From Candidatus Omnitrophota bacterium (GTDB taxonomy: Bacteria; Omnitrophota; Gorgyraeia; Aquiviventales; Aquiviventaceae): a stretch of DNA of 64,000 nt. Each line of letters opens with the position of its first letter. The first letter of the stretch is position 1. The stretch is from NCBI GenBank assembly GCA_023247275.1, contig JAHFGT010000001.1, positions 6,265-70,264 of the forward strand, read 5' to 3'. Positions 18,236-59,794 of the stretch are shown in pieces. The position numbers and the translations under genes were made by a program. Under the pieces are notes generated by a model. The model was not told the DNA's origin and ran no database searches. It was given only the letters and a program-made list of their open reading frames with translations.

Positions 18236-18386
18236 CCCACCACCTGCCGGCGGCGCGCCCGCAGCGCAACGACGGGGTCGCGCGCCGGGAACGTGCGCCA
18301 TTCAGCACGATAGGCGGGTCTTGAGCGGCTCATCGAATCTCCGTGAAACGTTCCTGACCGCCATCGGCGGTCACCAGCAGGGGGGA

Positions 18387-37469: not shown

Positions 37470-38424
37470 GGGCGGATGTCTGCGCAACCGGTCGGTGTAA
37501 GACGTCCAGCAGATTTCGGATCGTGCGTTCGTGCACCGCAGTCGCGGCTTGGGGGCTGCTGTTCGCGTTGTGCGGAGCCAGCCAACAGTTGGGCAGTCGA
37601 CGGAGCGGGCTGTCCGCCGGCAACGGCTCAACGTCGAACACATCCAACGCCGCGCCGGCGATTCGTCTTTGCTCCAGGGCGCGCACCAACGCGGATTCCT
37701 CTATCACCGGCCCGCGCGAGGTATTCACGATCACAGCGGTCGGTTTCATGCGCGCGAACGCCGACTCGTCCATCAAATGAAACGAGGTGGGGTTCAGTGA
37801 CGGGTTCAGACTGATACAATCGGCCTCGCGCAGGAGCTGGTCACGTGCCACCATCTGGATCCCGGTACTGGCGACAAATGGCTGTGGTAGCTCTACCGGA
37901 TCATGTCCCAACACCCGCATGCCGAACGCGACCGCCCGACGCACCACCGCCTTGCCGCAATTGCCGACGCCGATCACCCCCAATGTGCGCTCCCGCAGCG
38001 AGACGAGTTCCGGCTTGATCCATTGGCCCTCATGCATCTGCGCATTCATCTCGGCCAGCCGACGGGCAAACAGCAGCAGATATCCCATGACCGTATCAGC
38101 CACTGGTTCACTAAACGCGTTCGGCGTATTGCACACTACGATCCCGCGTTGAGCCGCCGCCTCAAGGTCAATCGAATCGATTCCAGTGCCCCACTTTGAG
38201 ATGACCTTCAGCCGTGGTGCAGCCTCCAGCACCTGGCGCGTCAGCCGATCATCCCCGCAGATGATCCCGTCGATATCACCCACCACCGGCAACAATTCAG
38301 CCTCGCTCAGCCGTTCCTGGACGCGCGCGACAATGACCTCGCATCCAGCGGCTTCCAACGCTGCGCGGTACCGGTCAATCACCGATATGGCATACGGAGC
38401 AGAGATCAGCACCCGGTCGCTCAT
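37462..38424 (-). CDS. D-isomer-specific 2-hydroxyacid dehydrogenase family protein
   Basis: GIVVCNTPNAFSEPVADTVMGYLL and the NAD motif TLGVIGVGNCGKAV. Catalytic R/E/H region. Confidence 0.85.
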   Translation of the reverse strand: MSDRVLISAPYAISVIDRYRAALEAAGCEVIVARVQERLSEAELLPVVGDIDGIICGDDRLTRQVLEAAPRLKVISKWGTGIDSIDLEAAAQRGIVVCNTPNAFSEPVADTVMGYLLLFARRLAEMNAQMHEGQWIKPELVSLRERTLGVIGVGNCGKAVVRRAVAFGMRVLGHDPVELPQPFVASTGIQMVARDQLLREADCISLNPSLNPTSFHLMDESAFARMKPTAVIVNTSRGPVIEESALVRALEQRRIAGAALDVFDVEPLPADSPLRRLPNCWLAPHNANSSPQAATAVHERTIRNLLDVLHRPVAQTSAHG

Positions 38425-39200
38425 TGCGCCGCGGCCGCCTGTCTGTAGCGAGCGATCAGCGGATCGTTCGCCAGCATCGCTTCAACGCTGGGCACATCAT
38501 CCGGCACATCAACCGCCTGGCTGAACCGATCGGTCTCAACCAAGCGCACGCGATACCCATGCTCCAAGAGCCGCAGCATATCGATCGACTCAGCCTGCTC
38601 CAATGGCGTTGGTGGCAGCGTAGCGTAGCGCAGCAACAGGTCCCGCCGGAATGGAATGACGCACACCTGCTTGTAATAGCGCGGATGGCTTGGCAATTCA
38701 CCGGGCGATGATCGGCGAGCCGGAATAACCGCCCGCGAAAAATACAGCGCGTCCCCGCGCGCTGACTGCACCACTTTAATCGTGTTCCAATCCTGTAACT
38801 CGCGCGCCGATCGGATCGGCGCGACCAGATTCACACACCCGACCGCCGGCTCGCGCGCCAACGGCTCGATGGCCGCATCGATCATTTCCGGGACGATCAA
38901 TGGTTCATCACCTTGGACCATCACGATGAGGTCCGCCGTCAACCCCTGCGCGGCCTCAGCGACTCGATCGCTCGCACGCTCATGAGCGGACGAGGTCATC
39001 ACCGCGTGCCCCCCAAACCGCTCAACCGCGGCGGCGATGGCGTCATCACACGTCGCCACCACCACATCGTCCAACGAGTCGCACAGCCGGGTGCGCCAAT
39101 AGACATGTTCGATCATCGGCCGGCCGGCGATCAGCGTCAGTGGTTTGCCAGGGAATCGGGTTGACCCAAGCCTGGCCGGGATGATCGCCGCGATCTTCAT
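38421..39200 (-). CDS. kdsB: 3-deoxy-manno-octulosonate cytidylyltransferase (CMP-Kdo synthetase) family
   Basis: MKIAAIIPARLGSTRFPGKPL...QGDEPL...YFSRAVIP. Colinear with E. coli KdsB. Confidence 0.8.
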   Translation of the reverse strand: MKIAAIIPARLGSTRFPGKPLTLIAGRPMIEHVYWRTRLCDSLDDVVVATCDDAIAAAVERFGGHAVMTSSAHERASDRVAEAAQGLTADLIVMVQGDEPLIVPEMIDAAIEPLAREPAVGCVNLVAPIRSARELQDWNTIKVVQSARGDALYFSRAVIPARRSSPGELPSHPRYYKQVCVIPFRRDLLLRYATLPPTPLEQAESIDMLRLLEHGYRVRLVETDRFSQAVDVPDDVPSVEAMLANDPLIARYRQAAAAQ

Positions 39201-40198
39201 CCGGTCTCCATCGGTCGGCGAGCCACCACCCGGACATGCGAGCTAAGCCGATGCTGACTCAGGAAACTTTGGAAGGCCTGCCGAGTGGCATCATTCGCCT
39301 GCACCAGCGACCTCACAAACCGGGGCATGGGAATCGTCGGATTCTCTTGTACCATGTTCGCCACGATATCGACGTCCAGTCGCCCAGGCGTCGACAGCTC
39401 AACCAACTCGAGGCCGGCTCGCTCCATCAGCCGCTGCAGACCGTGAATCGATAACAGATTGAGATGGTGCGGCGGATGGATGCTCTTCGACCGGTCCCAT
39501 AACACCTGCAAGTCAAAGCCGCTGATGGTGAGCGTCGTCAGGACCAGTAGCCCACCCGGACGCAGCACCTGGCACGCCGCGGTCACAAACTGCAACGGAT
39601 CGAACGGATGCTCCACCACCTCAAACGCGGTGGCAACATCGACCTGACATTCGTCCGGTGTGACCGCCTCCAGCGGTTTCTCAATGACGCGGAATCCGCG
39701 CTGGCGGCAGACGGCGGCCAATGTCGGTCCTGGCTCAATACCCAACACCGTGGAGAACCGATCCAGCCGTTGGATCTCTTCCAAGAACACCCCATAGCCG
39801 GATCCGATGTCGACGAAACTGGAGGCGCGCTCCGCGTGCCGGCCCACGAACTCCTGCACCAACTGGGCGCGCGGGGCAAACAGGTTGCGGCGACGCGATT
39901 CAGCGGTCTGCCGAAAAAAGTCGGTGCTCCAAAATTTCACGGACGCTCCCTCGCGGTAGAATACTGCGAGTTGATCTGCGCTCGGACGCGGCGACACATA
40001 CAGCGAGTCGCACGCGGCACAGCTCACATACGAAAACCCCAGCTTCTCAAATGCTGGCGTCTGCTGCGCAGACCCGCAGCCTGGGCATGGGACCGCCGTA
40101 AACTGTCCGGACGCGTGTGCCAACGACTCCGCATCACGCCGCGCCAGCGTCAGATAGTCGTTAAACAAATCCAGGGGTCGGATATCGGCTTCTTTCAT
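39197..40198 (-). CDS. SAM-dependent methyltransferase with N-terminal Cys4 zinc-binding domain (PF08421-like)
   Basis: CPGCGS-x18-CAAC followed by methyltransferase motif I FVDIGSGYGVF. Confidence 0.8.
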   Translation of the reverse strand: MKEADIRPLDLFNDYLTLARRDAESLAHASGQFTAVPCPGCGSAQQTPAFEKLGFSYVSCAACDSLYVSPRPSADQLAVFYREGASVKFWSTDFFRQTAESRRRNLFAPRAQLVQEFVGRHAERASSFVDIGSGYGVFLEEIQRLDRFSTVLGIEPGPTLAAVCRQRGFRVIEKPLEAVTPDECQVDVATAFEVVEHPFDPLQFVTAACQVLRPGGLLVLTTLTISGFDLQVLWDRSKSIHPPHHLNLLSIHGLQRLMERAGLELVELSTPGRLDVDIVANMVQENPTIPMPRFVRSLVQANDATRQAFQSFLSQHRLSSHVRVVARRPMETG

Positions 40199-40315
40199 CG
40201 CCGAGTGGCCTCGCGCCGTTCCAACGTCAGCAGACTCATCGTACCCGTCAGAAGAACCCGAGCACTGCTGCGCTGGACCGTTCGGTAAGCTTCAGCGTGA
40301 AGAGTTGGAACGGCA

Positions 40316-41356
40316 CTAGCGGGGTTCAGGTGCCCAGGAATCTGAATTGTCAATGCAGGCTTTGCAGACCGGGTTCTCTGCGTATCGTCCTTGCTGATGG
40401 AGGATGCGCAGCTGCTGCATTTTCTCGCCGTTCCAAATGGACTTGACGTCTGCCGTATGGGCGTTGCCCATCACCAGATGTTCCGCGGCTCGCATATTGC
40501 AGCACGGCAACACCGACCCATTGGCCCGGACGGTCACCCGCTGAAACGGGCTTGGGCATCGCGGCGTGATCGTTGGCGTCCGCGGAGCCCCGGTGGTGAA
40601 GTGGACCTGCTTTTCCTCCCGCATGGCGCCATCAAACGGGTTGTGCAAATTCTGAATCGAAAACAGATCGGCCTTGTCTTCCCAATAGTCCAAGAACGGT
40701 TCCAGCTCGTGCAGATTGTCGGCCATCCGCAAAAAGGTCAGTTTCAACAGCGGTAACCGGACGCCCAGCTCTTTGCGGATCTCCAAAAACCGGTGGATCG
40801 CTTTGAGCAGCTTGGCGTACTCCCCGCCGACACGCACCTTCGCGTACGTCTCGGCTGAGAACGCATCCACGGAAAATGACAGCTTGGTCAGCCCGGCCGT
40901 GATCAATTCCTGAGTCAACTCATCGGTGAGGAGTAAGCCATTGGTATTGAACATCACCTCGACCGCGCCAGCTTCGCGCGCGCAGCGGACGAATTGGGGC
41001 AGGTCTCGTCGAATCAGCGGCTCATTAATGTAGTTAAGATTCACCGCGCGCAACCCGTGCGTGACTCCATCCGTGACGATCTGTTTGAAAAATTCAAACT
41101 CCATCCAGGAGCTTTTGCCCTTCCCATAAGTGGCCTCAGCGCTCCAGGTACACATCGGGCATTTCAGATTGCAGGAGACGTTCAGCTCGAAATCGATCTG
41201 GACCGGATACGATCGTTCCAGCTCCAGCTTGGTCGTCTGCTCCCATTCTGTGCGATACTCAGCATACCCAGGGCCGATCTCTTCAATCAACACCCGGTGC
41301 GGATCTTCATGCGGACTGTACAACGATTTGCGCCAACCTTTATGCACGTACGCCAT
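40316..41356 (-). CDS. Radical SAM protein with C-terminal SPASM/twitch-like Cys cluster
   Basis: CNLKCPMC (CxxxCxxC) at about residue 70. The C-terminus has CPSPFQRV...LPCCNM...CKAC. Confidence 0.8.
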   Translation of the reverse strand: MAYVHKGWRKSLYSPHEDPHRVLIEEIGPGYAEYRTEWEQTTKLELERSYPVQIDFELNVSCNLKCPMCTWSAEATYGKGKSSWMEFEFFKQIVTDGVTHGLRAVNLNYINEPLIRRDLPQFVRCAREAGAVEVMFNTNGLLLTDELTQELITAGLTKLSFSVDAFSAETYAKVRVGGEYAKLLKAIHRFLEIRKELGVRLPLLKLTFLRMADNLHELEPFLDYWEDKADLFSIQNLHNPFDGAMREEKQVHFTTGAPRTPTITPRCPSPFQRVTVRANGSVLPCCNMRAAEHLVMGNAHTADVKSIWNGEKMQQLRILHQQGRYAENPVCKACIDNSDSWAPEPR

Positions 41357-43202
41357 CGTCTCCCCTTGTCAATGCGATGATCGATCCGACGCGGGCCGGC
41401 TCCAGTCTCGACGCCGGCTCAGGCTGAACGATTGCAGGACCTCCCGCCTGTAACGCCCAGTACGCGCTGCGGCGCGACACGAGCTGTTCATGGGTCCCCT
41501 GTTCGGCGACTCGGCCATGCTCCAGGACCACGATGTGATGCGCCTTGAGGATCATCGACAGCCGGTGCGCCACAATAATCACGGTGCGGCCCTGGCTGAT
41601 TCTCAGCATCGCCTGATGCACACGCCGCTCGGACTCTTGGTCAAGGGCGCTGGTCGCTTCATCAAACAGCAATACGTCAGGTCGGCGCAACACCGCTCGC
41701 GCAATGGCGATCCGTTGCCGCTGGCCACCGGACAGCTTTAGACCTCGATCGCCAACGATGGTGTCGTACCCCTGTGGCAAGGCGTGGATGAACTCATCCG
41801 CATCCGCCTGTTGCGCCGCCCAGCGAATGTCTGATTCGCTGGCCGATGGGTGCGCGAACGCAATATTGTCCGCGATCGACGCGTGAAAGATGAACGTGTC
41901 CTGGCTCACGAACCCGATCCGGCTTCGCCACGAAGCGATATCGAAAGTGTTGAGATCAACCCCATCCAGGGTCACTCGACCCGCGGTGGGATCGTACAGG
42001 CGAACCAGCAGATCCACGATCGTCGACTTTCCTGCCCCTGACGGGCCAACGATGACTGTGGTCTGTCCCACGGGAAACGTGAGGGTCACCTCAGACAGCA
42101 CCTCCACCCCCTCGGCGCCCGGATAGGCAAACCGCACATGGTCCAACCGAACCGCCTCCTGAATGCCTGGGCATGGCAGACCGGCTGGTTGATCGTGCTG
42201 CGGCCTGGGCAACTCTAGCAGCTGCTGCACGGTGCGCACTGAAGCGACCTCAGCGCGCAGCTTGATCAGTTCTTTGTTGAGCCCACCGACCAGCGGCAAC
42301 AACCGGGCCAAGATCACGACCACCATCACCACTACCGACAAGAGATTCTCTGCGGTGGACGACCCGTGATTCAGCACCATCACCGACACCATCATGACGA
42401 CCGCGGCCGCCACCTCGCCCAACGGCTGCGCCAACACGGGCAGGATCTGGAGTCTGAAATTGGCCTGGCTCATCTGATCCGCCATGCGCTGAAACCCGGC
42501 CTGGAGCCGATCTTCTGCGGAGAAGACTTTGACCTGCCTGATCCCAAGGATGGCCTCGGCCGTGAGGGCGGTAAAGTCGCGAACCAGCCGCTGCCGGATC
42601 GATGCCAGTCGCCGAGACGTGAGCGCGAGCCGCTGCAATCCGATCGTCAACACCGCAAACGTGAGCGTCGCAGCACAGGTGGCCTGCCAGGAGATGCAGA
42701 TGAGCAGGACGTAGAGCGCCGCGATAGTGGTCGTAATGGACAACAGCGACAGGACGGTGGAAACCGCTTGTCCGGCGATGCCGGTCTCACCAAACAGATC
42801 GTTGATCAGCCGGCCTTGCCGTCGATCCAGGAAAAACTGAAACGGCGAGTGCAGGTACCGGTCAAAGATTCTAGTCCGCAGATCCTTCACCGTCCCGAGC
42901 TCAATGCGCAAGCCGAGCAGTCGGCTGGCATACCCCAACAGGTTTTTCAGGATGATGGCGGCCAGTAAGACGCCGGCAATCCATTGCACCTGCGCGTGGC
43001 GCGGGCCATTACCGGCCACCCACCGACTCAGCGCCAGCACACTGTTTGGGAGCGGCTGCCGACCGGTCGTCAGCGGCATGAACAGCGGCACAAATAAGCT
43101 AATACTCGCTGATTCGAGAATCGCGCTCCCGGTTCCAAGCGCCACACACGCCACTAGCAGCCACCGGTACGGCCGCACCAACCGCCACACGGCCTGCATC
43201 AC
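41340..43202 (-). CDS. ABC exporter, fused permease + ATPase (MsbA / lipid A-flippase-like)
   Basis: 620 aa with six TM helices, then Walker A GPSGAGKST, signature LSGGQRQRIAIARA and Walker B LLFDEATSALD. No N-terminal peptidase domain. Confidence 0.9.
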   Translation of the reverse strand: MMQAVWRLVRPYRWLLVACVALGTGSAILESASISLFVPLFMPLTTGRQPLPNSVLALSRWVAGNGPRHAQVQWIAGVLLAAIILKNLLGYASRLLGLRIELGTVKDLRTRIFDRYLHSPFQFFLDRRQGRLINDLFGETGIAGQAVSTVLSLLSITTTIAALYVLLICISWQATCAATLTFAVLTIGLQRLALTSRRLASIRQRLVRDFTALTAEAILGIRQVKVFSAEDRLQAGFQRMADQMSQANFRLQILPVLAQPLGEVAAAVVMMVSVMVLNHGSSTAENLLSVVVMVVVILARLLPLVGGLNKELIKLRAEVASVRTVQQLLELPRPQHDQPAGLPCPGIQEAVRLDHVRFAYPGAEGVEVLSEVTLTFPVGQTTVIVGPSGAGKSTIVDLLVRLYDPTAGRVTLDGVDLNTFDIASWRSRIGFVSQDTFIFHASIADNIAFAHPSASESDIRWAAQQADADEFIHALPQGYDTIVGDRGLKLSGGQRQRIAIARAVLRRPDVLLFDEATSALDQESERRVHQAMLRISQGRTVIIVAHRLSMILKAHHIVVLEHGRVAEQGTHEQLVSRRSAYWALQAGGPAIVQPEPASRLEPARVGSIIALTRGDDGVRA

Positions 43203-44077
43203 GCCGCTGACTCCGATGGTCTATCGCCCCAACCCGGTGGAGACGCCTCAAGGAGAGCTGGCTGGGCCGACGAGCGCGAGCCAGGGTTCGCGTCTGGCTT
43301 TTCCATCAGCAGCACCACATGGTCCCAGCCGCCCACGCGCGCCTGCCGGCGATACGTTTCCGCGATCACTCGACACCCGAATCGGCGCTGATACCGTTTG
43401 CGCAGATCATGGAAGAACACATCGTCCTCGAACAAGGCCACCCCACCCAGCGCCTCCGGCCTGTAGTTCCATGTCGGCTCCAGATGCAGCACATACCGCG
43501 AGGAGACCCTGAGCACTTCCCGCAGAACGTCAGTCACCCGTGAGGGTGAGACATGTCCGAGGACCATAAAGGTGTACACGAGCTCGAAGGCTCCATCGGC
43601 AAACGGCAAGGAGAACATGTTGCCCTGCACAAAGTTCACCCCGTGCTGCACGAACCCGAGTTCGCGCGCCCCCTGGAGCTGTTCAGGCGCCACATCGATC
43701 CCGGTGAATCGGCTCAGCGGATAGTGTCGCTGAAAAAAGTCCAGGTTCCAGCCCGGCCCGCAGCCGACTTCGAGCCATGATGCCGGGATGATTTTCTCAG
43801 TGCGCAGACCATCCAGCACCAACTGTTGCCGCAAGGCGATTCGCTGCTTCGCTTCAGGATCAGACCATTTCGCCACATAATGCTGAATCGTCCGGTTGGT
43901 GATAAACCGGGGGTCTTGGTACCCTTGGATCCGTTGAGCCTGCACGGTGCTGCGGCCCATCAACCTGCGCAGCAGATACGCCACCCGGTACGGGTGCTCC
44001 AACCCAAAATAGCTGCGCTCCAGGATCCCTTGAACGACCGCTTTGAGTGGACGCCGAAGCACCGCCGGCAGTCTCAT
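43199..44077 (-). CDS. Class I SAM-dependent methyltransferase
   Basis: LEVGCGPGWNLDFFQRHYP...GIDVAPEQL. Confidence 0.75.
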   Translation of the reverse strand: MRLPAVLRRPLKAVVQGILERSYFGLEHPYRVAYLLRRLMGRSTVQAQRIQGYQDPRFITNRTIQHYVAKWSDPEAKQRIALRQQLVLDGLRTEKIIPASWLEVGCGPGWNLDFFQRHYPLSRFTGIDVAPEQLQGARELGFVQHGVNFVQGNMFSLPFADGAFELVYTFMVLGHVSPSRVTDVLREVLRVSSRYVLHLEPTWNYRPEALGGVALFEDDVFFHDLRKRYQRRFGCRVIAETYRRQARVGGWDHVVLLMEKPDANPGSRSSAQPALLEASPPGWGDRPSESAA

Positions 44078-46038
44078 GAGTGCCGCCTGTTGACGACCAG
44101 CTGATCCTGCTGGATCATAGCAACCACCGCGTCTCTGAATCGAGTGATCGCGTGCCCATCGGTAAACGGATCAAACAGCTGTCGGACACGATTCACCACG
44201 GTCGCCGGAATAGCCTCGACGTCTTGGGCGACAGAACCCTCTGACCCTGTTCCGCTGACGACCGGCCGATGCAATGAGGCGATCACCGCGTTGACCAGCG
44301 CCGATTCCTCATCGAACATCAGCCGCCACTGATCGAAAAATTCCGCGGCAAACGGCGCCACCCGAAACTCCGATGGCGTGAACACGTACGAGGGCTTCCC
44401 CAGCAGCAACGCCTCGATCCACACCGAGCCGAACGCCGCGTATTGCCCGGTGGACATGACCGCATCCGCCTGCTGGATTAAGTACTGGGCCGTGCAGGTC
44501 AGCTGCTTGGTGGGATCAAGGATCGCGATCCGTTGCGCCCGCACGCCAGGCTCAAGGATGTCCCAAAAAGGTGGCGTGAACAAAAACCGCGAATGCTCAG
44601 GCCACTCCTCGTTGGCTTTGGGCTTGAGGATGATCCGCAGAGGAACCGGGCGTCGGGCCAGCTCGGCGATCGCCAGCAGGAAGCGACGGTTGCGTTCCAT
44701 CACAAAAACATCAGGCGTATACGAACCGGTAAATGCGGCAAGGATCGTTTCACCAGGCTGTCGATCGACCAGCAGCCGTCGCACCGGTTCGCTGGCAGCC
44801 TGATCGTCCGACATCCTGGAGCTGTCGTTACTCGGCATCCCGATGGCGGTCACCTGCATCCGACGGCTCCAGGTCTGGCCATAGATCGACACCGGAAACC
44901 ACCCTTGGACCGGAAACAGATCGTAGTGCAGGTACGCGGTCTGCGCGCCGGCGGTGGTAAACGCGGTGTACGGCACCCAGGTCGTGCGGCCGCCGGTATG
45001 GTTGAGCACGATCGTTTCAATAATATGGTGGTACGCGTGCTCTTCCGCATTGAGCAACACGCGCAGCGGAGAGTGACGCAGAAACGTCTCCAGCTGGATT
45101 CCGTACCGAACTGCCCCGGTCAGACCACGCCGCAGCGGCGGATGGGGCGACTGACCAGTTCGGCACAGAGCACCGACCAGGCGAGCGAGTCGAGGAATCA
45201 ACCGCAACAAATCGCTCAAGACCATCGGTGGCCCGCACAACCTGGCCCATCGCAGGCCAGCGTGATCATATTCCCGGATGCGTTGAGCTTCAGGACCTTT
45301 TCCCGATATGACCAGCAGGAGATCGCTGCGCTGGACGCGATCCCCATCGGCCAGGAAATCGGCCGAACGCAACTCGTTGGGCCGGCCGGTCACCGTCCAA
45401 TAGTCGTGAAATCCGATCCGAGGTGCCGCACGGTGGCGAACGCGTACACAGAGCCCTTGCCGGACACACTGCGTCAGCACCTGCCACACCAACCCAGCCG
45501 CGACGATTCCATGTCCGATCAGCGGCTGCCACCAGCGCCACGCACTCGGCTGTGATTCCTGCCGACTCTGTATCGCGTGCTGGGGCCAGATTGTTTGACG
45601 CAGTCGCCAGCCATCCAGCAATTTCGCAGACCATGAACTCGTGACAACAAACGTCGCCTGCGTGCACCGCTGTTGACGTGCCTGCTCCAGCGCAGCGTGG
45701 TACAGTGCCACCTGGTCTTGCACCCAGTGACACACGATCTTCCGGCAGACCAAACGCACCTGCGGGTCGCCGTAGAAAAACTGCTGGAACGCCTGCTCGA
45801 GATCAGGTTCGACTAAATCGCGAAACAACGTTTCGGTGAGCTCAACGCTGAGCAATGATGCCGCGGCCAGCCCGGCCCCCATCTGTTCCCGACGCAACAC
45901 TTGCCCAGCCATTCTGGTCCAGCGGTGCCATGGACCGATGGCCGGCCGCAATGCCACCGTCGTTCCGCACGCGCATCGAGAGGCTTCCTGCACGTGGCGG
46001 ATCCGCCCAAGCCGCTGAGGTCGCTCTACAATGATCAC
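44074..46038 (-). CDS. Large hypothetical protein, possibly TagF-like / capsule-type transferase
   Basis: 654 aa. The C-terminal ILKPKANEE...ADAVMSTGQYAAFGSVWIEALLLGKPSYVF loosely resembles the TagF family C-terminus. Confidence 0.3.
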   Translation of the reverse strand: MIIVERPQRLGRIRHVQEASRCACGTTVALRPAIGPWHRWTRMAGQVLRREQMGAGLAAASLLSVELTETLFRDLVEPDLEQAFQQFFYGDPQVRLVCRKIVCHWVQDQVALYHAALEQARQQRCTQATFVVTSSWSAKLLDGWRLRQTIWPQHAIQSRQESQPSAWRWWQPLIGHGIVAAGLVWQVLTQCVRQGLCVRVRHRAAPRIGFHDYWTVTGRPNELRSADFLADGDRVQRSDLLLVISGKGPEAQRIREYDHAGLRWARLCGPPMVLSDLLRLIPRLARLVGALCRTGQSPHPPLRRGLTGAVRYGIQLETFLRHSPLRVLLNAEEHAYHHIIETIVLNHTGGRTTWVPYTAFTTAGAQTAYLHYDLFPVQGWFPVSIYGQTWSRRMQVTAIGMPSNDSSRMSDDQAASEPVRRLLVDRQPGETILAAFTGSYTPDVFVMERNRRFLLAIAELARRPVPLRIILKPKANEEWPEHSRFLFTPPFWDILEPGVRAQRIAILDPTKQLTCTAQYLIQQADAVMSTGQYAAFGSVWIEALLLGKPSYVFTPSEFRVAPFAAEFFDQWRLMFDEESALVNAVIASLHRPVVSGTGSEGSVAQDVEAIPATVVNRVRQLFDPFTDGHAITRFRDAVVAMIQQDQLVVNRRHS

Positions 46039-47297
46039 GATGACCCCTGGGCGAGCAAGCGATCCACTAGCTCCTGTGTCGCGCTGACTGATAATCGATA
46101 CACCCGAATGCGCGCCAACGCGTGCAGTTGCAGAAACTCATCCCTCAGCCGAGCCAATTGCTGGAGATGTTCAACGGTTAAAAACCCGGACAGGAACGCC
46201 TCGCGAATCAGCCCTGGGAACTCTCTAGCTGTCTGTGAGCCCTCCGGAACACCGACCCTCTGGAGTTGGAACCCAGCCCGAATCGCGGCGATCGCTTGAT
46301 ACCCGCGTTTGAGCCTGGCCGCCACACGATCCCCCAACAACCGTTGGGTCCACTGAAACAGACGGGTGCGCCCGGTCGCAACTCCATAAGGAAAATCATC
46401 GCTCAACGCCCGGTTGATCAGCGCCTGCGCGGTCGCCACATCTTCTGCGCAGCTCCACTCGCGCTCGCTGGGACTGGGATCCACCTCAGCGATCACCGCC
46501 AACTGATCGAACGTCAGCAGCCCTGGCGCATACTCGGTGATGGCCACCACGCGAAACCCATGCTGTTCCAGCGTCTGAATCAGGCTGCGGCGAGAATACA
46601 GGATCACGTGCGTCTTGATCATATGCCGTTGATGCAAGAACCCCAGATCCGGCGTTTCCAAATAGATGAGACCGCCCGGGCGCAACACGGTGCGGACCGC
46701 CGCCAGGAACGCGGGCGGGTCGTTAATGTGTTCAAAAAATTGAAAGAACGCGATGATATCAAACGTCGACCCATCCGCCAGGCCGGCCGGAAAATAGTCT
46801 GATACCATTTGCACGCCATACTGCTCGCGCGCCCAGTGCGCGTACCGTGCGTTCGGATCGATCCCCATGGTCTGCCATCCGCGCTGCTGCATGAGCCAGA
46901 GAAACGACCCATCCCTGGCACCAATCTCCAACAGCCGACGACCGGATGGCTCGCGCCCCACCGCCGCCAGCTGTTGCTCAAACCATCGCTGACGATACCG
47001 ATTGCGCTCACGACGATACGCGGTATCTTTGCGCCAGGTTGTGCGATCCATCTGTTGGTACGGCGAGACGTAGACCGTATCAAGCCCGTCATGGTCCTCG
47101 ATGACGCGTTCGGTATGCACCAGCCCGCACCGCGCGCAATGGCCATACACGACCCCAACGCTGGCCGGGACATATTTCGTTGCGACATGCAGCAGCGGCT
47201 GGCGATCAACGCCTCCACAGACCGGGCACCGGGCCCGCGGCATCATCACGATGGCAGGCGCGGTGTGTGGCCGATCAGCCAGCATGACCCGCTCCAA
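46035..47297 (-). CDS. SAM-dependent methyltransferase with N-terminal Cys4 zinc-binding domain and extra C-terminal domain (TylC3-type C-methyltransferase architecture)
   Basis: CPVCGG-x26-CARC. Methyltransferase motif LLEIGARDGSFLWLM. A roughly 150-aa C-terminal extension. Confidence 0.7.
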   Translation of the reverse strand: MERVMLADRPHTAPAIVMMPRARCPVCGGVDRQPLLHVATKYVPASVGVVYGHCARCGLVHTERVIEDHDGLDTVYVSPYQQMDRTTWRKDTAYRRERNRYRQRWFEQQLAAVGREPSGRRLLEIGARDGSFLWLMQQRGWQTMGIDPNARYAHWAREQYGVQMVSDYFPAGLADGSTFDIIAFFQFFEHINDPPAFLAAVRTVLRPGGLIYLETPDLGFLHQRHMIKTHVILYSRRSLIQTLEQHGFRVVAITEYAPGLLTFDQLAVIAEVDPSPSEREWSCAEDVATAQALINRALSDDFPYGVATGRTRLFQWTQRLLGDRVAARLKRGYQAIAAIRAGFQLQRVGVPEGSQTAREFPGLIREAFLSGFLTVEHLQQLARLRDEFLQLHALARIRVYRLSVSATQELVDRLLAQGSS

Positions 47298-49272
47298 CCG
47301 ACGGCTCCATCAGGACACCGTGGGCCTTCTCCAACGTGGCAACCCCCTGTCTCTGCGCAATCGCGCGGAGCGCATGAACAGCTCGTTCGGCTGAGCGTCC
47401 ATCCTGCTGCGCAGTGCCATAGCGACATAGAAATTCGTCATTGATCGGCTCAGGGGCGCGCCAAACCGGCCGGCGCAGCATCGCGTCGATCTCCTGTAAG
47501 AACGCCGGTTGATTCGTTGTCACGATCGCGCGCGCGGATAACAGCTGTTGCGCCTCTGGGTACAGCCGCATGAACCGGGTATCGGCTAAGACGATGATCG
47601 GCTGATCCGTCGTCAGCGCCTGCAGCAGCGTTGTGGCCGGGCTATCGATCAGGATCAGATCCGCGCGAGCCAACAGCTCGGCAAACGGTGGCGTCTGAAC
47701 CAGGCGGCATCGTCGGACCCGGGTCCGGCGCGCCCACGCTGCGAGCGGGTTGGTAAGACGATCTCGCGGATCCAACTTCACGATCAGCTCCACATCGGCA
47801 ACGCGCTCGCACCGCTCCACCACAGCGCGTTGGAGCCGCCAATACCAGATATCTGGGTAGATATGCCGGCTAAAATATCGCCAGTCTCCCATCAGCTCTG
47901 TCGGAACGTATAGGATGGTTCGACGGGCACGCAACCGATGACGAGGACGCTCAACGGGTCCTGGCACTCGACGCCTAGTGCAGAGGCGATCTAAGGCCGC
48001 CGATCCGACTGTGCTAGGCTGCGCTGCCCTCAGAGCATTGGTTCGGACGTGATCCACACCCAATCGCTCCACGGTCTCACGCACGCCATCGCCATAACAC
48101 AGAAAATAGTCGGCCAACTGCAGTTCAGAGAACGGCAGCATCGGGTACTCCAGATAGCCGACAAACCCGCCATGCTGAGCGACCACCGTTGGCACGCCAT
48201 GCTGGCGCGCGACCACCGCGCACGCGACGTCCTCGATCGTCAGGTACGCTGAGCCGAGAATCACCGAGGCCGAAGTCGAAGGCTTCTCCAACAGCCGCGC
48301 GAGCGCTGTCGCAGTGCTGACATGCCGCCCGAGCGCCTCAACCAACAGCGTGCGGGCCGATTGCTCGATCAGCGGCCACAGATCCAGGCCTGCGATGGTG
48401 CATGCGTCCCGGACCGCTTGATCTGTGCGCAGTCGATCCCACAGGCGATCGGTGACGCTAGCCTCTACCGGGGCGATGCCATGCTGAGCCTGGTTGCGAT
48501 GACGCGGCAGACGCATCAACCGTCGGTCGATGATCCCATGTCCTTGGGCAAGCCAAGCGGTTAACACCTCTTCATCTGACCAGTATCCGGTCAGAAGAAT
48601 TCGTACCCCTATGGCACGCGATCCATATCCATGGCGAATTCGCCACCGGGTCCATCGATCCTGATGGGGTCGTCGAAACGCACCGATCACCCGAGACAAC
48701 GCTCTAACCGACCTGGTGATGCGCGTGTCAATTCTGTTCGGCTCTGAGGACGATGGTGGTAGCGCGCACAACGCGATTCCCAGTTGCTGCGTCAGATACG
48801 GCAAGCACTGCATCGTCAAGATCCCGAGGCGAAGATCTGTTGGGACGTGCGCCGGTACGGCGGCCACAATGGTCTGGGGTGTGACCAGTTCGATCGCCGA
48901 TTTCAGCGTATAGGTTCGATGCAGCAGAGCGTCGACAACAATTTTTACGCGATAATAGAGCGACTGCAACGAAAACCCTGCCAACGTAGCCGGTTCTACG
49001 CAAGCCTGAAGATGAGAATCGACCGCGGCGCACAGCTGTTCAGTTTTTCGGAAGTTATCATGTCCTAACGCCAACAAGGCGTCCTCGTCGTAGCAGTCCT
49101 CGATGGTTCGGTATGTCAAGCCCTGACGCGTTGCCGCTTCGTCAGCAGCCGGTGTGAGCGCAACTAAGCTCAGCGGCCGACCCTGGTGTTGGCTCCAGAC
49201 CAGGAGCTGTTGGAGTTCGTCTGGGGTGGCGAACAGCCCCATCGTCGTGTGCGCGGTCCTGTTCATTACCAA
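47275..49272 (-). CDS. Large TagF-like (CDP-glycerol glycerophosphotransferase family) protein, tentative
   Basis: 665 aa. ILYVPTE...IVKLDPRD...ADLILIDSPATTLLQALTTDQPIIVL parallels the TagF motifs. Confidence 0.35.
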   Translation of the reverse strand: MVMNRTAHTTMGLFATPDELQQLLVWSQHQGRPLSLVALTPAADEAATRQGLTYRTIEDCYDEDALLALGHDNFRKTEQLCAAVDSHLQACVEPATLAGFSLQSLYYRVKIVVDALLHRTYTLKSAIELVTPQTIVAAVPAHVPTDLRLGILTMQCLPYLTQQLGIALCALPPSSSEPNRIDTRITRSVRALSRVIGAFRRPHQDRWTRWRIRHGYGSRAIGVRILLTGYWSDEEVLTAWLAQGHGIIDRRLMRLPRHRNQAQHGIAPVEASVTDRLWDRLRTDQAVRDACTIAGLDLWPLIEQSARTLLVEALGRHVSTATALARLLEKPSTSASVILGSAYLTIEDVACAVVARQHGVPTVVAQHGGFVGYLEYPMLPFSELQLADYFLCYGDGVRETVERLGVDHVRTNALRAAQPSTVGSAALDRLCTRRRVPGPVERPRHRLRARRTILYVPTELMGDWRYFSRHIYPDIWYWRLQRAVVERCERVADVELIVKLDPRDRLTNPLAAWARRTRVRRCRLVQTPPFAELLARADLILIDSPATTLLQALTTDQPIIVLADTRFMRLYPEAQQLLSARAIVTTNQPAFLQEIDAMLRRPVWRAPEPINDEFLCRYGTAQQDGRSAERAVHALRAIAQRQGVATLEKAHGVLMEPSVGAGHAG

Positions 49273-50138
49273 CAGGTTCTACCTCCGTCGATCACCAGGT
49301 TTGCCCCGGTCATGTACGACGACGCATCTGAAACCAGAAAAATCACGGCGGCCTTATACTCATCAGGCTGCGCCATTCGACCCATGGGAATGAGCTCTGA
49401 CAGCCGCTGCACAAATGGGGTTGGTTGGTCGGTCTGTACGCCGCCTGGTGAGATCGCATTTACCCGAACCCCGCGATCTGCCCAATAGGTCGCCAGATAC
49501 CTGGTCAAACCGAGCAGGCCGGTTTTTACCACCGCGTAGCTGATCGGCTTAGTGGGTTGCTGGTCATCAGGCAATCCAGGCTGACGATAGATTCGCTGAT
49601 CCGGGGCGATGACCGCCAAGTCTGACGCGATGTTGAGAATCACCCCCTGACCCTGCCGCGCCATTTCAGCGCCGATGAGTTGGCTGCACACAAATGCTCC
49701 GGTTAATCCGACCGCTAGATCACGGTTCCACAGATCTAATGGAAACTGGTCCAACCGGGTCCATGAACCTTCGCATGAATGGCCCGGGGGGCTCGCCGAC
49801 ACCTGTGGGTTGTTGGCCGCATTGTTGATCAGAATATCGACCCGTCCAAAACTCGCCAACGTCTGTCCCAACGCGGCGGCTATCGAAGAGGGGTTCGTGA
49901 CATCAGCCCGGATCCCGAGCGCTGAGCCACCATGCTCCTTGCTGATGGCCTGAGCAGCGGTTTGGGCATCTGGCTCGCGCACATCTAGGAGCACCGGGAT
50001 CCCCCCCATTTCAGCGATCGCCTCAGCATGCTTGGCGCCCAACAGCCCTGCCCCGCCGGTAATGATGGCGACGCGGCCTGTTAAATCGAATCGATCCCGA
50101 ACCGAAGCTGCCACTCGTGGTTGTGCTGTAGTACTCAT
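49266..50138 (-). CDS. Classical SDR-family oxidoreductase
   Basis: RVAIITGGAGLLGAKHA and YAVVKTGLLGLTR (YxxxK). The maximal ORF extends to 50183. Confidence 0.85.
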   Translation of the reverse strand: MSTTAQPRVAASVRDRFDLTGRVAIITGGAGLLGAKHAEAIAEMGGIPVLLDVREPDAQTAAQAISKEHGGSALGIRADVTNPSSIAAALGQTLASFGRVDILINNAANNPQVSASPPGHSCEGSWTRLDQFPLDLWNRDLAVGLTGAFVCSQLIGAEMARQGQGVILNIASDLAVIAPDQRIYRQPGLPDDQQPTKPISYAVVKTGLLGLTRYLATYWADRGVRVNAISPGGVQTDQPTPFVQRLSELIPMGRMAQPDEYKAAVIFLVSDASSYMTGANLVIDGGRTCW

Positions 50139-51187
50139 CGCGCCGCCACGATCCGAAGGCATGTCCGATCCCCGCCATAACACAACTCCTCTGATCCCAG
50201 CAGCTCAGCGCACCGCTCAGGGCGGATCCTGGTCACCAGCTCATCAGCCATTTTCGTTGGGAGGCAGGACAACAACGCCTTGCCTGTGTTGACCAGCCAC
50301 CGGCGTGGCGCTGATGGCGTCGCGCGAGTGGTGCCATTGCACCGATTTGACCACCAGTCCGCATACGTCGGGCCGCAGGTCTCGAGAAACTTCACCGTCA
50401 ACCCGGCCTGCTGGAACACGCGCGCTAAACTGTCCTGGCTAAAGAACCCCAGATGCGGCGCGTCGTTGTCTCGACGCTCGGCATGCTGGCGCAAATCACA
50501 ATGCGGCACTTCGCAGATCATAATCCCATCATCGCTGAGTAACGGCTTAACCTGCATCAGCCACGCCACCGCATCCACGCCATTGACATGCTCCAGCACA
50601 TGGGACATCAAGATCAGCTCAAAGGTGTTGCCGGGCGGGCTCCCAGCACATGGCTTTCGCGGATCCAGTGACTGTGCGATCACCTGCACCCCAGCGCGTT
50701 GCCGCAACCATTGAGCGGCTGACTCGTCAGGCTCGATCACAGATGCCTGAAGCCCGGGACACACCTGAGCGAGCGCATCTAGACTGGCCCCCTGGCCTGG
50801 CCCAATGTCCAGGAACGATTCTCCTGTGTGAAATGTTCGGAACAGCTTCGCCAGCAGCACCTGCGCGACTGCACGAGGATCCAACCGGGCGCGCCATGGC
50901 CCTGAGCTGCCCAGCGCATGCACCGACCCAGGGGCTCGATACTGGTGGCGATAAAATCGTTCGAGTCTGGCCACATCCACCGCAGGAGTTGCGTATCCAA
51001 ACCCGCACGATCCGCAGACCAGAATCTCCAAGCCGGTAAACGGATTCTCGGCTTGGGGCAGATGCGAACATTGCTGATCGATGTACCTCATCCGCACCAA
51101 CGTCCCTACTGTGGCTGCGCAGATTGGACAACCGTTCAGCAAGGGTGGCACCGGCTGCGCAAGAGACAACACGGCCGCATCTACCAT
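50135..51187 (-). CDS. SAM-dependent methyltransferase with N-terminal Cys4 zinc-binding domain
   Basis: CPICAA-x34-CGSCGF, then FLDIGPGQGASLDAL. The maximal ORF extends to 51220. Confidence 0.75.
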   Translation of the reverse strand: MVDAAVLSLAQPVPPLLNGCPICAATVGTLVRMRYIDQQCSHLPQAENPFTGLEILVCGSCGFGYATPAVDVARLERFYRHQYRAPGSVHALGSSGPWRARLDPRAVAQVLLAKLFRTFHTGESFLDIGPGQGASLDALAQVCPGLQASVIEPDESAAQWLRQRAGVQVIAQSLDPRKPCAGSPPGNTFELILMSHVLEHVNGVDAVAWLMQVKPLLSDDGIMICEVPHCDLRQHAERRDNDAPHLGFFSQDSLARVFQQAGLTVKFLETCGPTYADWWSNRCNGTTRATPSAPRRWLVNTGKALLSCLPTKMADELVTRIRPERCAELLGSEELCYGGDRTCLRIVAAR

Positions 51188-51957
51188 CCGCGTGTCTGCC
51201 CGCCATCGACGACCAAACACGCGCCAGTCAGAAACGACGCGCGCGTTGAAGCCAGGAACACCGCCGCATCCGCGACTTCGTCGACCCGACCAAATCTGCC
51301 CAGCGGCACTTCGCGCTGAATGTACTTGGCGACCTGCTCAGACTGCTGCTGTTGATACCGGTCCCATGATCCACCGGGGAACAAGATATTTCCCGGCGCC
51401 ACCGCATTGACCCGCACCCCATGCGGGCCGACCGCGCGTGACAAACTCTTCATCGTGCTGTGCAACGCGGCCTTGGCCGCGCTGTACGGCACCGGTGCCC
51501 CGAGCGCCTCACAACCAGCGATCGAGGAAATAAATGTGAGACTCCCAGCACGCTGACGAACCAGATGTTTGAGGACCGCGTCCGCCAACTGCACGCTACC
51601 TAAAAGGTTCATCTGAAGGCTCGCCTGCCACTCCTTAGGCGTCACATGCCATCCGCTTGGTCCGACCCCGCTGCCAATGTTCGCCACCACCGCATCTAGC
51701 CGCTTAAACCGAGCGAGTACCTGCTCCACCGCTTCTTGAATACGCACCGGATCAGTCAGATCGCCTTGCACCGCCATGACGCGGGACGGGTCGCTGGCCT
51801 CCGCCAAGCGTCGCGTCGCCTGGTCTAGCACATCCGGCCGGCGTCCGCTAATCACGACTGATGCGCCTTCCTTCAAGAACGCCTCGCTAATCGCGAGCCC
51901 AATGCCTTGACTCGATCCGGCAATGAAGACCACCGATCCTTCGAGTTCCAGATTCAT
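51181..51957 (-). CDS. Classical SDR-family oxidoreductase (3-oxoacyl-ACP reductase-like)
   Basis: VVFIAGSSQGIGLAISEAF and YSAAKAAL. Confidence 0.85.
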   Translation of the reverse strand: MNLELEGSVVFIAGSSQGIGLAISEAFLKEGASVVISGRRPDVLDQATRRLAEASDPSRVMAVQGDLTDPVRIQEAVEQVLARFKRLDAVVANIGSGVGPSGWHVTPKEWQASLQMNLLGSVQLADAVLKHLVRQRAGSLTFISSIAGCEALGAPVPYSAAKAALHSTMKSLSRAVGPHGVRVNAVAPGNILFPGGSWDRYQQQQSEQVAKYIQREVPLGRFGRVDEVADAAVFLASTRASFLTGACLVVDGGQTRGW

Positions 51958-52799
51958 GCTGCAGGAACAGCCACAACGTTGACCTGCTGCTCAATCAACT
52001 GGCGATTGCGGATCGCCAACTGGAGCTCAGATACCGATGGATCTCTCGCGGCTTGCAGAACCAACGGTCCTGAAAATCGGCGTTCCCCAAGCAGCCGAAA
52101 CACCGTCGGAAAGTCAGCAGCCCCGGTCCCCAATCCCACCGACGGGCCACCTCGCGGACGGTCCTTCACATGGACGCTGCCCACCCAGGCCCCAATCGCC
52201 GTCAGCTCCTCGGTTGGATCATGGCCCAGAGCCGCGCAATTGCCGATGTCGTACGTATATTTCACCATGGGGTGCGCCACCGCGGTCATCAGCTCGACTA
52301 GCGGCTGGGCTTGCAGATCCATTTCCAGGTGTAACTCAACGTGCGTTCGCTCGGCGACAGGGACTACTCGCCGCAACATTTCCACCACCGCATGGCCTTG
52401 TGCGGCGGTTGTCAGCGACGACGCGTCGACAAACGGCAACACCACATGGCGGGCGCCCAGCATCTGAAGGCGTCCCAGCAACCAGCTCAGATGCCGCTGG
52501 GTCGGCTGATGAATCGTGCCATCTGGCTCAATCAGCGGCCGGGTCATGTAGTAATCGGCGCAGACCGACCAGACTGAGACGCCACTGTCCTCACTCACTC
52601 GCCGGATCTCCTGAAGACCATCATCGGTGCGCAACGGATTCACCGATTCAGATTCCTGATCATAGATCCATTCGATGCAGGACAACCCGGCGTGTTGTGC
52701 CAGCGCAAACTCTGCCCGCCAGGTGCGCGTTGGAAATGATTGCAATCGCCCGCGATCCGGCGGCGACAATCTGCCTTGCATCAGGCCAATCACATTCAT
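51954..52799 (-). CDS. Sugar-phosphate isomerase/epimerase (xylose-isomerase-like TIM barrel)
   Basis: MNVIGLMQGRLSPP...FALAQHAGLSCIEW... The maximal ORF extends to 52994. The MNVIG start gives an ATGA overlap with the upstream aminotransferase. Confidence 0.65.
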   Translation of the reverse strand: MNVIGLMQGRLSPPDRGRLQSFPTRTWRAEFALAQHAGLSCIEWIYDQESESVNPLRTDDGLQEIRRVSEDSGVSVWSVCADYYMTRPLIEPDGTIHQPTQRHLSWLLGRLQMLGARHVVLPFVDASSLTTAAQGHAVVEMLRRVVPVAERTHVELHLEMDLQAQPLVELMTAVAHPMVKYTYDIGNCAALGHDPTEELTAIGAWVGSVHVKDRPRGGPSVGLGTGAADFPTVFRLLGERRFSGPLVLQAARDPSVSELQLAIRNRQLIEQQVNVVAVPAA

Positions 52800-53851
52800 C
52801 GCGCGGTCCCAAACACATACGGCGACACTCCGGCGGCCGGTGGCGTAGTGCGGACACGATCCCACTGTTTGATTTGCTCCACAATATCGATACCCACGTT
52901 GCGGCTCCATTGCGCCAACAGCGCCTGTGTGACCGGCCCAGGCGTTCCAGCACCGATCGGTTGCCCATTCAACTGAGTCACCGGGAGCAGACAAAACGGC
53001 GTAGCCGTCATGAAGGCTTCATCCGCTTGCAGCACGTCATACGACTCCAGCTGGTCTTCAGCAACCCGCAATTCGAGTTGTCGCGCCAGCTCTTCCATGA
53101 CATAGTGACGACTAATTCCCCGGAGGACGTTCTGCCCCAGTGGCGTGATGAGCTGCCGACCTTTCACAAGAAAGAAATTACTGCCCGTGCCCTCCGTAAT
53201 AAAGCCGTTGGGATCCAACAAGAGTGCCCAGTTGTGCGACCCCTGCCACCGGCTCACTTCGAGATTGGCTTTGAAGTAGTGCAGGCGACTTCGGTGCTTC
53301 ACTTTCGGATCCAGCAATGAGGCCGGGATCGCTCGCTGAGACGGAATGACGGCATGAATCCCCGCATCGAACAACTCCCCCATCCCGGCCACGGTCCAGC
53401 GCAGCGGGAAATCCGCCATAATGACCTGCGGTCCCTTCGGGACGCCAACAACCCCTTCGTAGATACTGAGCAGGCCTCGGGTCACGTTGATCATCAGGCG
53501 GTGTTCATCATCCGCTGTGCACAGCGACTCGTTCGCCTGGATAGTCTGCTGCGCGGCCGCCTCCAACTCGGTGAAGCTGAACGGCAGTGGCAGCTCGACC
53601 GCTTTCGCCGATTGGGATAACCGCTCAAGGTGCTCTCGCAATTTGAACTGGACCTTCCCAAACGACCGGGTCATTTCGAAAACCATGTCACCAAACATCA
53701 GGGCGGAATCATAGATCGACAATCGCGCATCTGCCTCCGGCACGAATTGCCCGTTCCACCACACCACGCGCGAACGTTCTGGAATCATGCCGCGCCGTCC
53801 CGGCCGCTCGGGGGGAGGGTCGCGCCTTCGACGAATCCGCTGCGCTGCCAT
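52796..53851 (-). CDS. PLP fold-type IV aminotransferase (branched-chain / D-amino-acid aminotransferase family)
   Basis: SIYDSALMFGDMVFEM, ITEGTGSNFFLVKGRQLITP. Confidence 0.8.
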   Translation of the reverse strand: MAAQRIRRRRDPPPERPGRRGMIPERSRVVWWNGQFVPEADARLSIYDSALMFGDMVFEMTRSFGKVQFKLREHLERLSQSAKAVELPLPFSFTELEAAAQQTIQANESLCTADDEHRLMINVTRGLLSIYEGVVGVPKGPQVIMADFPLRWTVAGMGELFDAGIHAVIPSQRAIPASLLDPKVKHRSRLHYFKANLEVSRWQGSHNWALLLDPNGFITEGTGSNFFLVKGRQLITPLGQNVLRGISRHYVMEELARQLELRVAEDQLESYDVLQADEAFMTATPFCLLPVTQLNGQPIGAGTPGPVTQALLAQWSRNVGIDIVEQIKQWDRVRTTPPAAGVSPYVFGTAR

Positions 53852-54138
53852 GTCAACGCATTGATCGCTTTGTCATCAATGTAGACATCTGCCGAGGGTT
53901 TGCCCATCTGCAGGATGTGGTAGCGCACTCTCCAGTCCCGCAACTGCTGCTCGGTGAGCGCCCGCCAGTCGATCCCGGTAGTCCCGCCGCGCGCGGTGTA
54001 CAATACAATGCGGTGCCCGGCCTGAAAGAGCCGATTCACCTCGTTGATGATCTTTGGAAACGGCTGCGCCTGATGGTACTCCCCGTTGGTGTTCGTGCAG
54101 AGCGTCCCATCGATATCAAAACAGTACGTCATCAGCAT
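53785..54138 (-). CDS. HAD-superfamily hydrolase (small phosphatase)
   Basis: CFDIDGTLC motif I and VLYTARG motif II. The maximal ORF extends to 54216. Confidence 0.55.
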   Translation of the reverse strand: MLMTYCFDIDGTLCTNTNGEYHQAQPFPKIINEVNRLFQAGHRIVLYTARGGTTGIDWRALTEQQLRDWRVRYHILQMGKPSADVYIDDKAINALTWQRSGFVEGATLPPSGRDGAA

Positions 54139-54152
54139 TCTCGGCTGGGCGG

Positions 54153-55929: not shown

Positions 55930-55930
55930 C

Positions 55931-59763: not shown

Positions 59764-59794
59764 GACCGTCACTTCAAGGGCCGAAGTGACGGTC
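59764..59794 (-). terminator. Perfect 12-bp stem / 7-nt loop hairpin immediately after the methyltransferase stop codon
   Basis: GACCGTCACTTC-AAGGGCC-GAAGTGACGGTC. The stop codon (59793-59795) lies in the right arm. A third copy of GTCACTTC follows. There is no strong U-tract. Confidence 0.5.

Follow-up and report, generated by a model that had tools for sequence, protein, structure and literature searches.

The 64,000-nucleotide stretch of Candidatus Omnitrophota DNA analysed here (positions 6,265 to 70,264 of contig JAHFGT010000001.1, assembly GCA_023247275.1; hereafter the window) consists largely of one glycan-assembly region, and within it are three methyltransferases that each carry an N-terminal ribbon of four cysteines (Cys4) ahead of a domain for S-adenosylmethionine (SAM). 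The question that this locus raises is what these three enzymes, which we will refer to as MT-A, MT-B and MT-C, methylate. An earlier note on the same DNA had assigned them to the TylC3-type C-methyltransferases of nucleoside diphosphate (NDP) sugars. Judged from the domain and profile comparisons described below, that assignment is wrong in the strict sense, although the likeness on which it was built reflects a relationship that is real and distant. We propose that the three are probably tailoring methyltransferases of their own conserved gene modules, which would act on cytidine monophosphate (CMP)-activated sugars of the ulosonic-acid type or on the glycan residues made from them.

Ribbon, methyltransferase domain and kinship

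The three open reading frames (ORFs) lie on the minus strand, as does every other feature placed below, and their coordinates, motif counts and Pfam assignments agree with what had been read from the letters, namely a CPxC knuckle, a spacer of 18, 26 or 34 amino acids (aa), a CxxC knuckle, and then a SAM motif within a Methyltransf_23 domain. MT-A (39197..40198; 333 aa) has its ribbon at CPGC38-41 and CAAC60-63 (40010..40087; 18 aa between the knuckles) and its SAM-binding Methyltransf_23 domain at residues 106-268 (39395..39883). MT-B (46035..47297; 420 aa as listed) has the knuckles CPVC24-27 and CARC54-57 (47127..47228; 26 aa apart), the Methyltransf_23 domain at residues 102-252 (46542..46994) and a further C-terminal region that is specific to its family. 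MT-C (50135..51220; 361 aa as listed) has the widest spacing, with 34 aa between CPIC31-34 and CGSC69-72 (51005..51130), followed by the domain at residues 122-276 (50393..50857). All three exceed the 27-bit gathering threshold of PF13489, scoring 70.3 bits (E 2e-19), 90.9 bits (E 1e-25) and 67.7 bits (E 1e-18) respectively, and the glycine-rich SAM motif stands about 65 aa past the ribbon (VDIGSGYG in MT-A, LEIGARDG in MT-B and LDIGPGQG in MT-C). Motif positions are numbered from the listed ORF starts; because the database proteins identical to MT-B and MT-C are 416 and 350 aa long, translation of these two probably begins 4 and 11 codons downstream of the listed starts.

The four cysteines are invariant in 44 aligned sequences of the A family, and in the C family they are among 18 invariant columns (17 sequences, mean column identity 38%). 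A joint alignment of 31 sequences from the three families (A4) has the C50/C53 pair invariant and the C20/C23 pair at least 90% conserved, and a paired N-terminal CxxC is found in just 4 of 54 window proteins, all four of them methyltransferases. On these alignments and counts the Cys4 pattern is not a matter of chance, and the cysteines are functionally constrained. Profile-profile comparison with hhalign aligns MT-A with MT-C (99.2% probability, E 1.4e-19) and MT-B with MT-C (99.6% probability, E 1.2e-23), in both cases from the first CxxC, and by this measure the three share one homologous ribbon-plus-methyltransferase module. Their pairwise identity is 25-28%, against 49-60% between each of them and its orthologs in other genomes, which argues that they are ancient paralogs and not a local expansion. 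A recent duplication inside the cluster is ruled out by the same figures. The word 'paralogous', as used of them before, therefore holds for the shared module, provided that it is taken to mean an ancient divergence.

The families differ greatly in size. A word-indexed search with MT-A gives 988 matches at E<=0.001 that are 52-61% identical, and the C family has about 20 homologs. An exhaustive search of 1.84 billion entries with MT-B returns 34,946 cluster representatives at E<1e-3 and 7 at E<1e-30, and among the 150 matches listed for MT-B many are proteins of 280-340 aa that align from the first CxxC. These matches indicate that MT-B belongs to a rare family within a very common two-domain ribbon-methyltransferase architecture, of which the three-domain C-methyltransferases are one branch. 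The two-domain zinc-ribbon/Methyltransf_23 proteins (automatically named 'class I SAM-dependent methyltransferase' or 'UbiG-like', COG2227-type) share both the architecture and the length class (about 300-360 aa) of our three enzymes, and they are often encoded within, or fused to, glycan-assembly genes. The longer relatives are fused to polysaccharide pyruvyl transferase, to Maf-type (MptE-like) domains with tetratricopeptide repeats, to a Wzx-type flippase or to glycosyltransferases of families GT9 and GT2, and some to a second methyltransferase; the fusions to glycan-assembly enzymes tie the class to glycan assembly. Compared with this class at large, MT-A, MT-B and MT-C are three separate subfamilies, each with conserved partners of its own.

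The likeness to the C-methyltransferases is not superficial. In sequence searches of the PDB, MtmC, TcaB9 and KijD1 rank first or close to first, and a profile of the three families together matches them at E 9e-28 to 2e-26, in an alignment that begins at the first CxxC, extends to about residue 270 and places both knuckles on the zinc cysteines C15/C18 and C56/C59 of TcaB9 (chain index); the ribbon of MT-A aligns in this way with the zinc cysteines of TcaB9. With the structural model of MT-B, KijD1, TcaB9 and MtmC account for the whole of the first 18 PDB matches found by Foldseek (E 3e-15 to 4e-13), and the next methyltransferase scores 6e-9. With the AlphaFold2 model of MT-A (pLDDT 94.7) the same three proteins come first and align over the full length, and generic methyltransferases score nearly as well. 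By count along the printed TcaB9 alignment, Y76, H181 and H225 of TcaB9 have as their equivalents a Tyr and two His that are invariant in the joint alignment; Y222 and E224 of TcaB9 are not conserved. We take these five residues to be the sugar-pocket residues of TcaB9, which is consistent with the names of mutants in PDB titles.

The domain models tell the two groups apart. PF08421 (cut-off 31.3 bits) finds no match in MT-A or MT-C and in MT-B gives 12.7 bits (E 0.15) over the second knuckle only, while the positive controls, fragments of TcaB9 and MtmC, reach 75.7 and 71.1 bits. PF08484 is not found in the full proteins at E<=0.01 or in the C-terminal fragment of MT-B at E<=10, and MT-A and MT-C are too short to hold this third domain at all. 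A three-domain relative from the exhaustive search (P0232) serves as a control for the latter model: PF08484 is detected in it, it aligns with MtmC through the third domain, and its ribbon and methyltransferase domains align with those of MT-B at E 1e-25. Despite its three genuine domains it has no PF08421 match at E<=0.01, so that some true members of the family escape the Pfam ribbon model, and PF08484 discriminates better. The low-rmsd (root mean square deviation) matches of Foldseek cover just about 262 of 416 residues of MT-B against the C-methyltransferases. In sum, PF13489 is present in all three enzymes and PF08421 and PF08484 in none, and the membership in the TylC3-type family claimed earlier does not survive, the mismatch with PF08421 being a result that the note itself had named as speaking against it; NDP-sugar C-methylation thereby loses its support as well. 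What they have in common with TcaB9, KijD1, MtmC and TylC3 (PF08421 + PF13489 + PF08484) is an N-terminal Cys4 ribbon directly before Methyltransf_23, at about 20% identity. The third domain of TcaB9 reportedly forms part of the site for the deoxythymidine diphosphate sugar and helps to hold the NDP-sugar, and its absence argues for a different acceptor in MT-A, MT-B and MT-C.

MT-B does extend beyond the methyltransferase domain, and this extension had been taken for the extra C-terminal domain of the TylC3 family. It is something different, a mostly helical region (residues ~275-420; 46038..46475) that is modelled with low confidence. These additional residues, about 145 in number, are conserved just within the small B family (MT-B, P0002 and P0003). 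The region resembles the ParB helix-turn-helix (HTH) family PF17762 weakly in MT-B itself (16.3 bits, E 0.011), and an MT-B ortholog (P0160) reaches 25.1 bits, above the cut-off of 22.6, and Noc (7ng0) comes up in the PDB search with an E value of 0.84. The region may serve in binding the co-translated 654-aa partner protein described below.

Gene modules around the three enzymes

MT-A is joined to two genes that travel with it widely. The MT-A stop is overlapped by 4 nt by a gene (38421..39200) for a KdsB-type cytidylyltransferase of the CMP-Kdo synthetase family (Kdo, 3-deoxy-D-manno-oct-2-ulosonic acid), which passes the NCBIfam cut-offs of NF009905 (292.8 bits, cut-off 255) and TIGR00466 (163.5 bits, cut-off 155.2). 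This gene is overlapped, again by 4 nt, by one for a D-isomer 2-hydroxyacid dehydrogenase similar to phosphoglycerate dehydrogenase (37462..38424; PF02826, E 4e-54). These start/stop overlaps, together with a third between MT-B and its neighbour, indicate co-translation. When we considered the neighbours within 6 kb at 80 A-family loci of GTDB genomes (L007-L086), a KdsB-like homolog was present at 61 and a D-2-hydroxyacid dehydrogenase at 50; other genes often encoded nearby, identified in part by Pfam and in part from the reading of representative sequences, specify an HpcH/HpaI-type aldolase, oxidoreductases of the GFO/IDH/MocA and short-chain dehydrogenase/reductase (SDR) types, phosphatases, and uncharacterised proteins of about 600 aa. 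The A family occurs in Elusimicrobia, Acidobacteriota, Desulfobacterota, Chloroflexota, Verrucomicrobiota, Bacteroidota, Proteobacteria, Omnitrophota, Melainabacteria and Methanomicrobiales, the triad spans more than 15 bacterial phyla as well as metagenome-assembled genomes of Methanomicrobiales, and the best match of MT-A found among GTDB representatives is 58% identical. In the literature that we searched we found nothing relevant on a triad of cytidylyltransferase, methyltransferase and 2-hydroxyacid dehydrogenase, and it looks like a widespread pathway for a CMP-activated acidic sugar that has not been described before.

The conserved partner of MT-B is a 654-aa protein whose gene (44074..46038) overlaps the MT-B stop by 4 nt, and whose orthologs, 44-45% identical, adjoin the MT-B orthologs at two other loci (L001 and L002). 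It matches no Pfam family at E<=0.01, and its similarity to Glycos_transf_1 (E 0.011, 15.8 bits) is below the cut-off of 26.4 bits. Beyond it lies a fused ATP-binding cassette (ABC) exporter of the MsbA/HepA-like kind (41340..43202), 51% identical to its counterparts in L001 and L002, and between this exporter and MT-A there is a radical SAM/SPASM protein (40316-41356) that shares 73% identity with the corresponding protein of the L002 B module, more than the methyltransferase itself does. The gene order MT-B, 654-aa protein, (radical SAM/SPASM protein), MsbA/HepA-like exporter is thus kept at both loci, at 44-73% identity.

MT-C is part of a longer cassette. It is flanked by two SDR oxidoreductases (49266..50183 and 51181..51957, 68% and 61% identical respectively to those of L087), and then follow an AP_endonuc_2-type sugar isomerase/epimerase, a class IV aminotransferase, a second KdsB-like cytidylyltransferase and a NeuB-type synthase (51954..55929). 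Two other loci (L087, 2718-12928, and L088, 2687-10110) are collinear with positions 49266-55929 of the window over NeuB, cytidylyltransferase, class IV aminotransferase, AP_endonuc_2 isomerase, SDR, MT-C and SDR, with identities of 39-79%. The end of the cassette is formed by a 665-aa putative transferase of the LIC12162 family (47275..49272; TIGR04331 at E 1.6e-15, below the cut-off), for whose orthologs PF27859 is recorded. L087 keeps this protein directly downstream (44% identical) and an HTH regulator upstream, so that its collinearity reaches 47275-56608, and L088 has an LIC12162-like gene about 5 kb further downstream. An aminotransferase of class IV (the branched-chain or D-amino-acid type) is unusual in a NeuB cassette, and its presence suggests a pathway for an amino-ulosonic acid that has not been described before.

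The context of the three enzymes is therefore one of CMP-ulosonic-acid and large-transferase modules, whereas TylC3-type enzymes belong to deoxysugar pathways. The conserved neighbours are not genes for NDP-4-keto-6-deoxyhexoses, and the genes of the NDP-sugar dehydratase/epimerase type in the window (17072-18301 and 24899-25906) lie more than 13 kb from MT-A, MT-B and MT-C.

What the three enzymes may methylate

A plausible account of how these enzymes work can be given on this basis, notwithstanding the differences between the modules. From the conserved residues we infer zinc binding and catalytic roles: the Cys4 ribbon would hold a structural zinc and pack on the class I SAM methyltransferase domain, SAM would sit in the Rossmann-like part of that domain, and the conserved His equivalent to His225 of TcaB9, aided by the conserved Tyr and the second His, would deprotonate the acceptor atom, which would then attack the methyl group of SAM. 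MT-A would work with the KdsB-type cytidylyltransferase and the D-2-hydroxyacid dehydrogenase, MT-B with the 654-aa protein, for which the sub-threshold signal hints at a GT-B-like fold, and with the MsbA/HepA-like exporter, and MT-C inside the cassette of NeuB, cytidylyltransferase, class IV aminotransferase, isomerase, two SDRs and LIC12162 transferase. The substrate in each case would be the unusual acidic sugar, Kdo-like or nonulosonic, of the enzyme's own module, and the methyl group would be added to it in its free form, in its CMP-activated form or once it has been transferred. In bacterial glycans methylation most commonly takes place on oxygen.

Several points count against this proposal or limit its reach. 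We found no characterised member of the A, B or C family in the literature searched, and we infer substrate class, methylated atom and regiochemistry from gene context. The model of MT-B is confident just for residues ~20-250. The conserved Tyr/His/His pocket, being that of C-methyltransferases, could equally mean C-methylation. Nor need the three act on the same kind of molecule: the 52-61% conservation of the A family across phyla, together with its many invariant arginines (R7, R71, R102, R110 and R165), would suggest a small anionic substrate and not a polymer, while the fusions seen among relatives of MT-B would point to action at the level of the polymer, and MT-A, MT-B and MT-C may accordingly act at different levels.

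The alternative that holds up best, although we still regard it as unlikely, is compatible with a tailoring role. It concerns MT-B alone and supposes that this enzyme is a chain terminator like WbdD of Escherichia coli O8/O9a; by capping the polymer at its non-reducing end it would set chain length and govern the hand-over to the neighbouring ABC exporter, with the helical C-terminus as an interaction or measuring domain. MT-B is indeed accompanied in every case by an ABC exporter and a large putative transferase, it has the helical extension specific to its family, and its relatives are fused to glycan-assembly enzymes; what it has in common with WbdD is that it is a SAM methyltransferase in a glycan cluster beside an ABC exporter. 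However, the exporter is a fused half-transporter of the MsbA/HepA type rather than a Wzm/Wzt pair equipped with a module that binds the cap, Pfam finds no kinase domain in MT-B, the extension is modelled with low confidence and is not a demonstrated coiled-coil ruler, and the window also contains a Wzy_C-type gene.

Slightly less probable again is that the three are C-methyltransferases which use enolate chemistry of the TcaB9 kind at C-3 of a 3-deoxy-2-ulosonic acid, beside its 2-keto group, or on some other keto intermediate supplied by the neighbouring dehydrogenases, to give a C-branched acidic sugar. The conserved Tyr/His/His of the pocket is shared with C-3 methyltransferases, oxidoreductases that could make a keto group flank MT-A (the 2-hydroxyacid dehydrogenase) and MT-C (the two SDRs) in conserved order, and on general chemical grounds 3-deoxy-2-keto acids should suit methylation through an enolate. 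Those residues could, however, also be used for O-methylation, neither Y222 nor E224 is conserved, and no bacterial glycan is known to us to contain a C-3-methyl ulosonic acid. A broader form of this idea, that two-domain ribbon methyltransferases in general have kept the Tyr/His/His pocket because they are C-methyltransferases on a new class of substrate, and that the A triad, methanogens included, makes a widespread and hitherto undescribed C-branched, CMP-activated acidic sugar, seems to us improbable.

More doubtful still is the assignment with which we began, that the enzymes add a C-methyl branch to an NDP-4-keto-hexose before glycosyl transfer, as TylC3 and TcaB9 do. The best matches among solved structures, the conserved zinc cysteines and equivalents of Y76, H181 and H225, and the two dehydratase/epimerase-type genes in the window are what speak for it. 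They are outweighed by the failure of PF08421 where the controls score 71-76 bits, by the absence from all three of a third domain that is detectable in P0232, by the lack of conservation of Y222 and E224, and by conserved neighbours of the CMP-ulosonic-acid kind with the dehydratase-type genes more than 13 kb away.

That the three are housekeeping enzymes for small molecules or RNA, merely located in the cluster, is hardly credible, for although there are weak NCBIfam matches to UbiG, CmoB and BioC, UbiG is the best PDB sequence match of MT-A and the automatic name at the Joint Genome Institute is '2-polyprenyl-...-benzoquinol methylase', their glycan-gene neighbourhoods are strictly conserved across phyla and they overlap glycan genes translationally. 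UbiG (TIGR01983, 35.6 bits against 102.95), CmoB (TIGR00452, 29.8 against 275) and BioC (TIGR02072, 27.8 against 184.95) all remain below their NCBIfam cut-offs, and MetW was rejected on the same grounds. UbiG and other small-molecule class I O-methyltransferases have the same Rossmann-type SAM fold, but UbiG lacks the zinc ribbon and has another gene context, and our three enzymes are far below its family cut-off.

The surrounding cluster and the value of the three families

The proposal that MT-A, MT-B and MT-C are tailoring enzymes is best seen against the remainder of the window, which has a G+C content of 61% and carries all of its long genes on one strand. The minus strand holds every gene-like long ORF over the 64 kb, numerous start and stop codons overlap by 4 nt, and GC skew is negative throughout. 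When about 54 ORFs were scanned with Pfam and NCBIfam, a few housekeeping genes were identified at the low-coordinate end (formyltransferase, PriA and uracil-DNA glycosylase); the rest is one large glycan-assembly region. It includes many glycosyltransferase genes of families GT2 and GT4, two of GT9, the Wzy_C-type gene (a single one), an initiating transferase of the WecA/MraY type, three polysaccharide deacetylases, two KdsB-like cytidylyltransferases, one NeuB-type synthase, the MsbA/HepA-like exporter, the radical SAM/SPASM protein and several oxidoreductases. The initiating transferase (23062-24885, 607 aa) is a Glycos_transf_4 protein fused to a domain similar to CoA_binding_3/PglD_N, and a 696-aa protein (35553-37643) is a fusion of a GT2 glycosyltransferase with a zinc-dependent alcohol dehydrogenase.

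Seven SAM methyltransferases had been counted in the cluster, and Pfam bears this out for the four that remain. Three of them are class I enzymes that lack a ribbon (9797..10597, 59793..60788 and 43199..44077, the last with a weak match to a Pse-associated methylase). The fourth (30814..33009) is a SAM methyltransferase as stated, although it had been counted as a plain one and is in fact a fourth ribbon-bearing enzyme, a fusion of a Trm112p-like Cys4 ribbon (CPAC89 and CAGC106; PF03966), of a type that differs from the ribbon of MT-A, MT-B and MT-C, with a SAM methyltransferase and a partial DegT-type aminotransferase domain. As listed, its N-terminal end runs about 200 nt into the GT2 gene upstream, so that the true start is probably later. 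That the glycan of this cluster is probably methylated at several places, as had been expected, remains reasonable.

Large proteins of 621-665 aa that match no Pfam-A family above threshold are encoded at three places in the window (33691-35556, 44074-46038 and 47275-49272), two of which belong to the modules of MT-B and MT-C. BLASTP finds no similarity among the 621-, 654- and 665-aa proteins, a PDB sequence search gives no match to them and their Pfam signals are sub-threshold only, and for two of the three there are sub-threshold matches to TIGR04326 and TIGR04331/LIC12162, both of them families of the Leptospira O-antigen. All three probably represent new transferases for the CMP-activated sugars.

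Within this window alone, what we describe is an ordinary set of tailoring enzymes, class I SAM methyltransferases of a glycan cluster that happen to carry a ribbon. The wider value lies in annotation, in that a Cys4 ribbon with a methyltransferase domain does not of itself make a TylC3-type enzyme, a tempting mis-annotation that is blocked when PF08484 and the PF08421 signature are used to discriminate, and in the recognition of three methyltransferase subfamilies, all lacking characterised members, that are each tied firmly to a conserved module for CMP-activated acidic sugars. Of these the A family is the most useful: it is very widespread and highly conserved, so that biochemical work on one member could extend an annotation to about a thousand known homologs or more and might reveal a new methylated Kdo-like sugar. 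Together, the A triad and the C cassette, with its NeuB synthase, class IV aminotransferase and LIC12162-family protein, point to CMP-activated sugars that have not yet been described.

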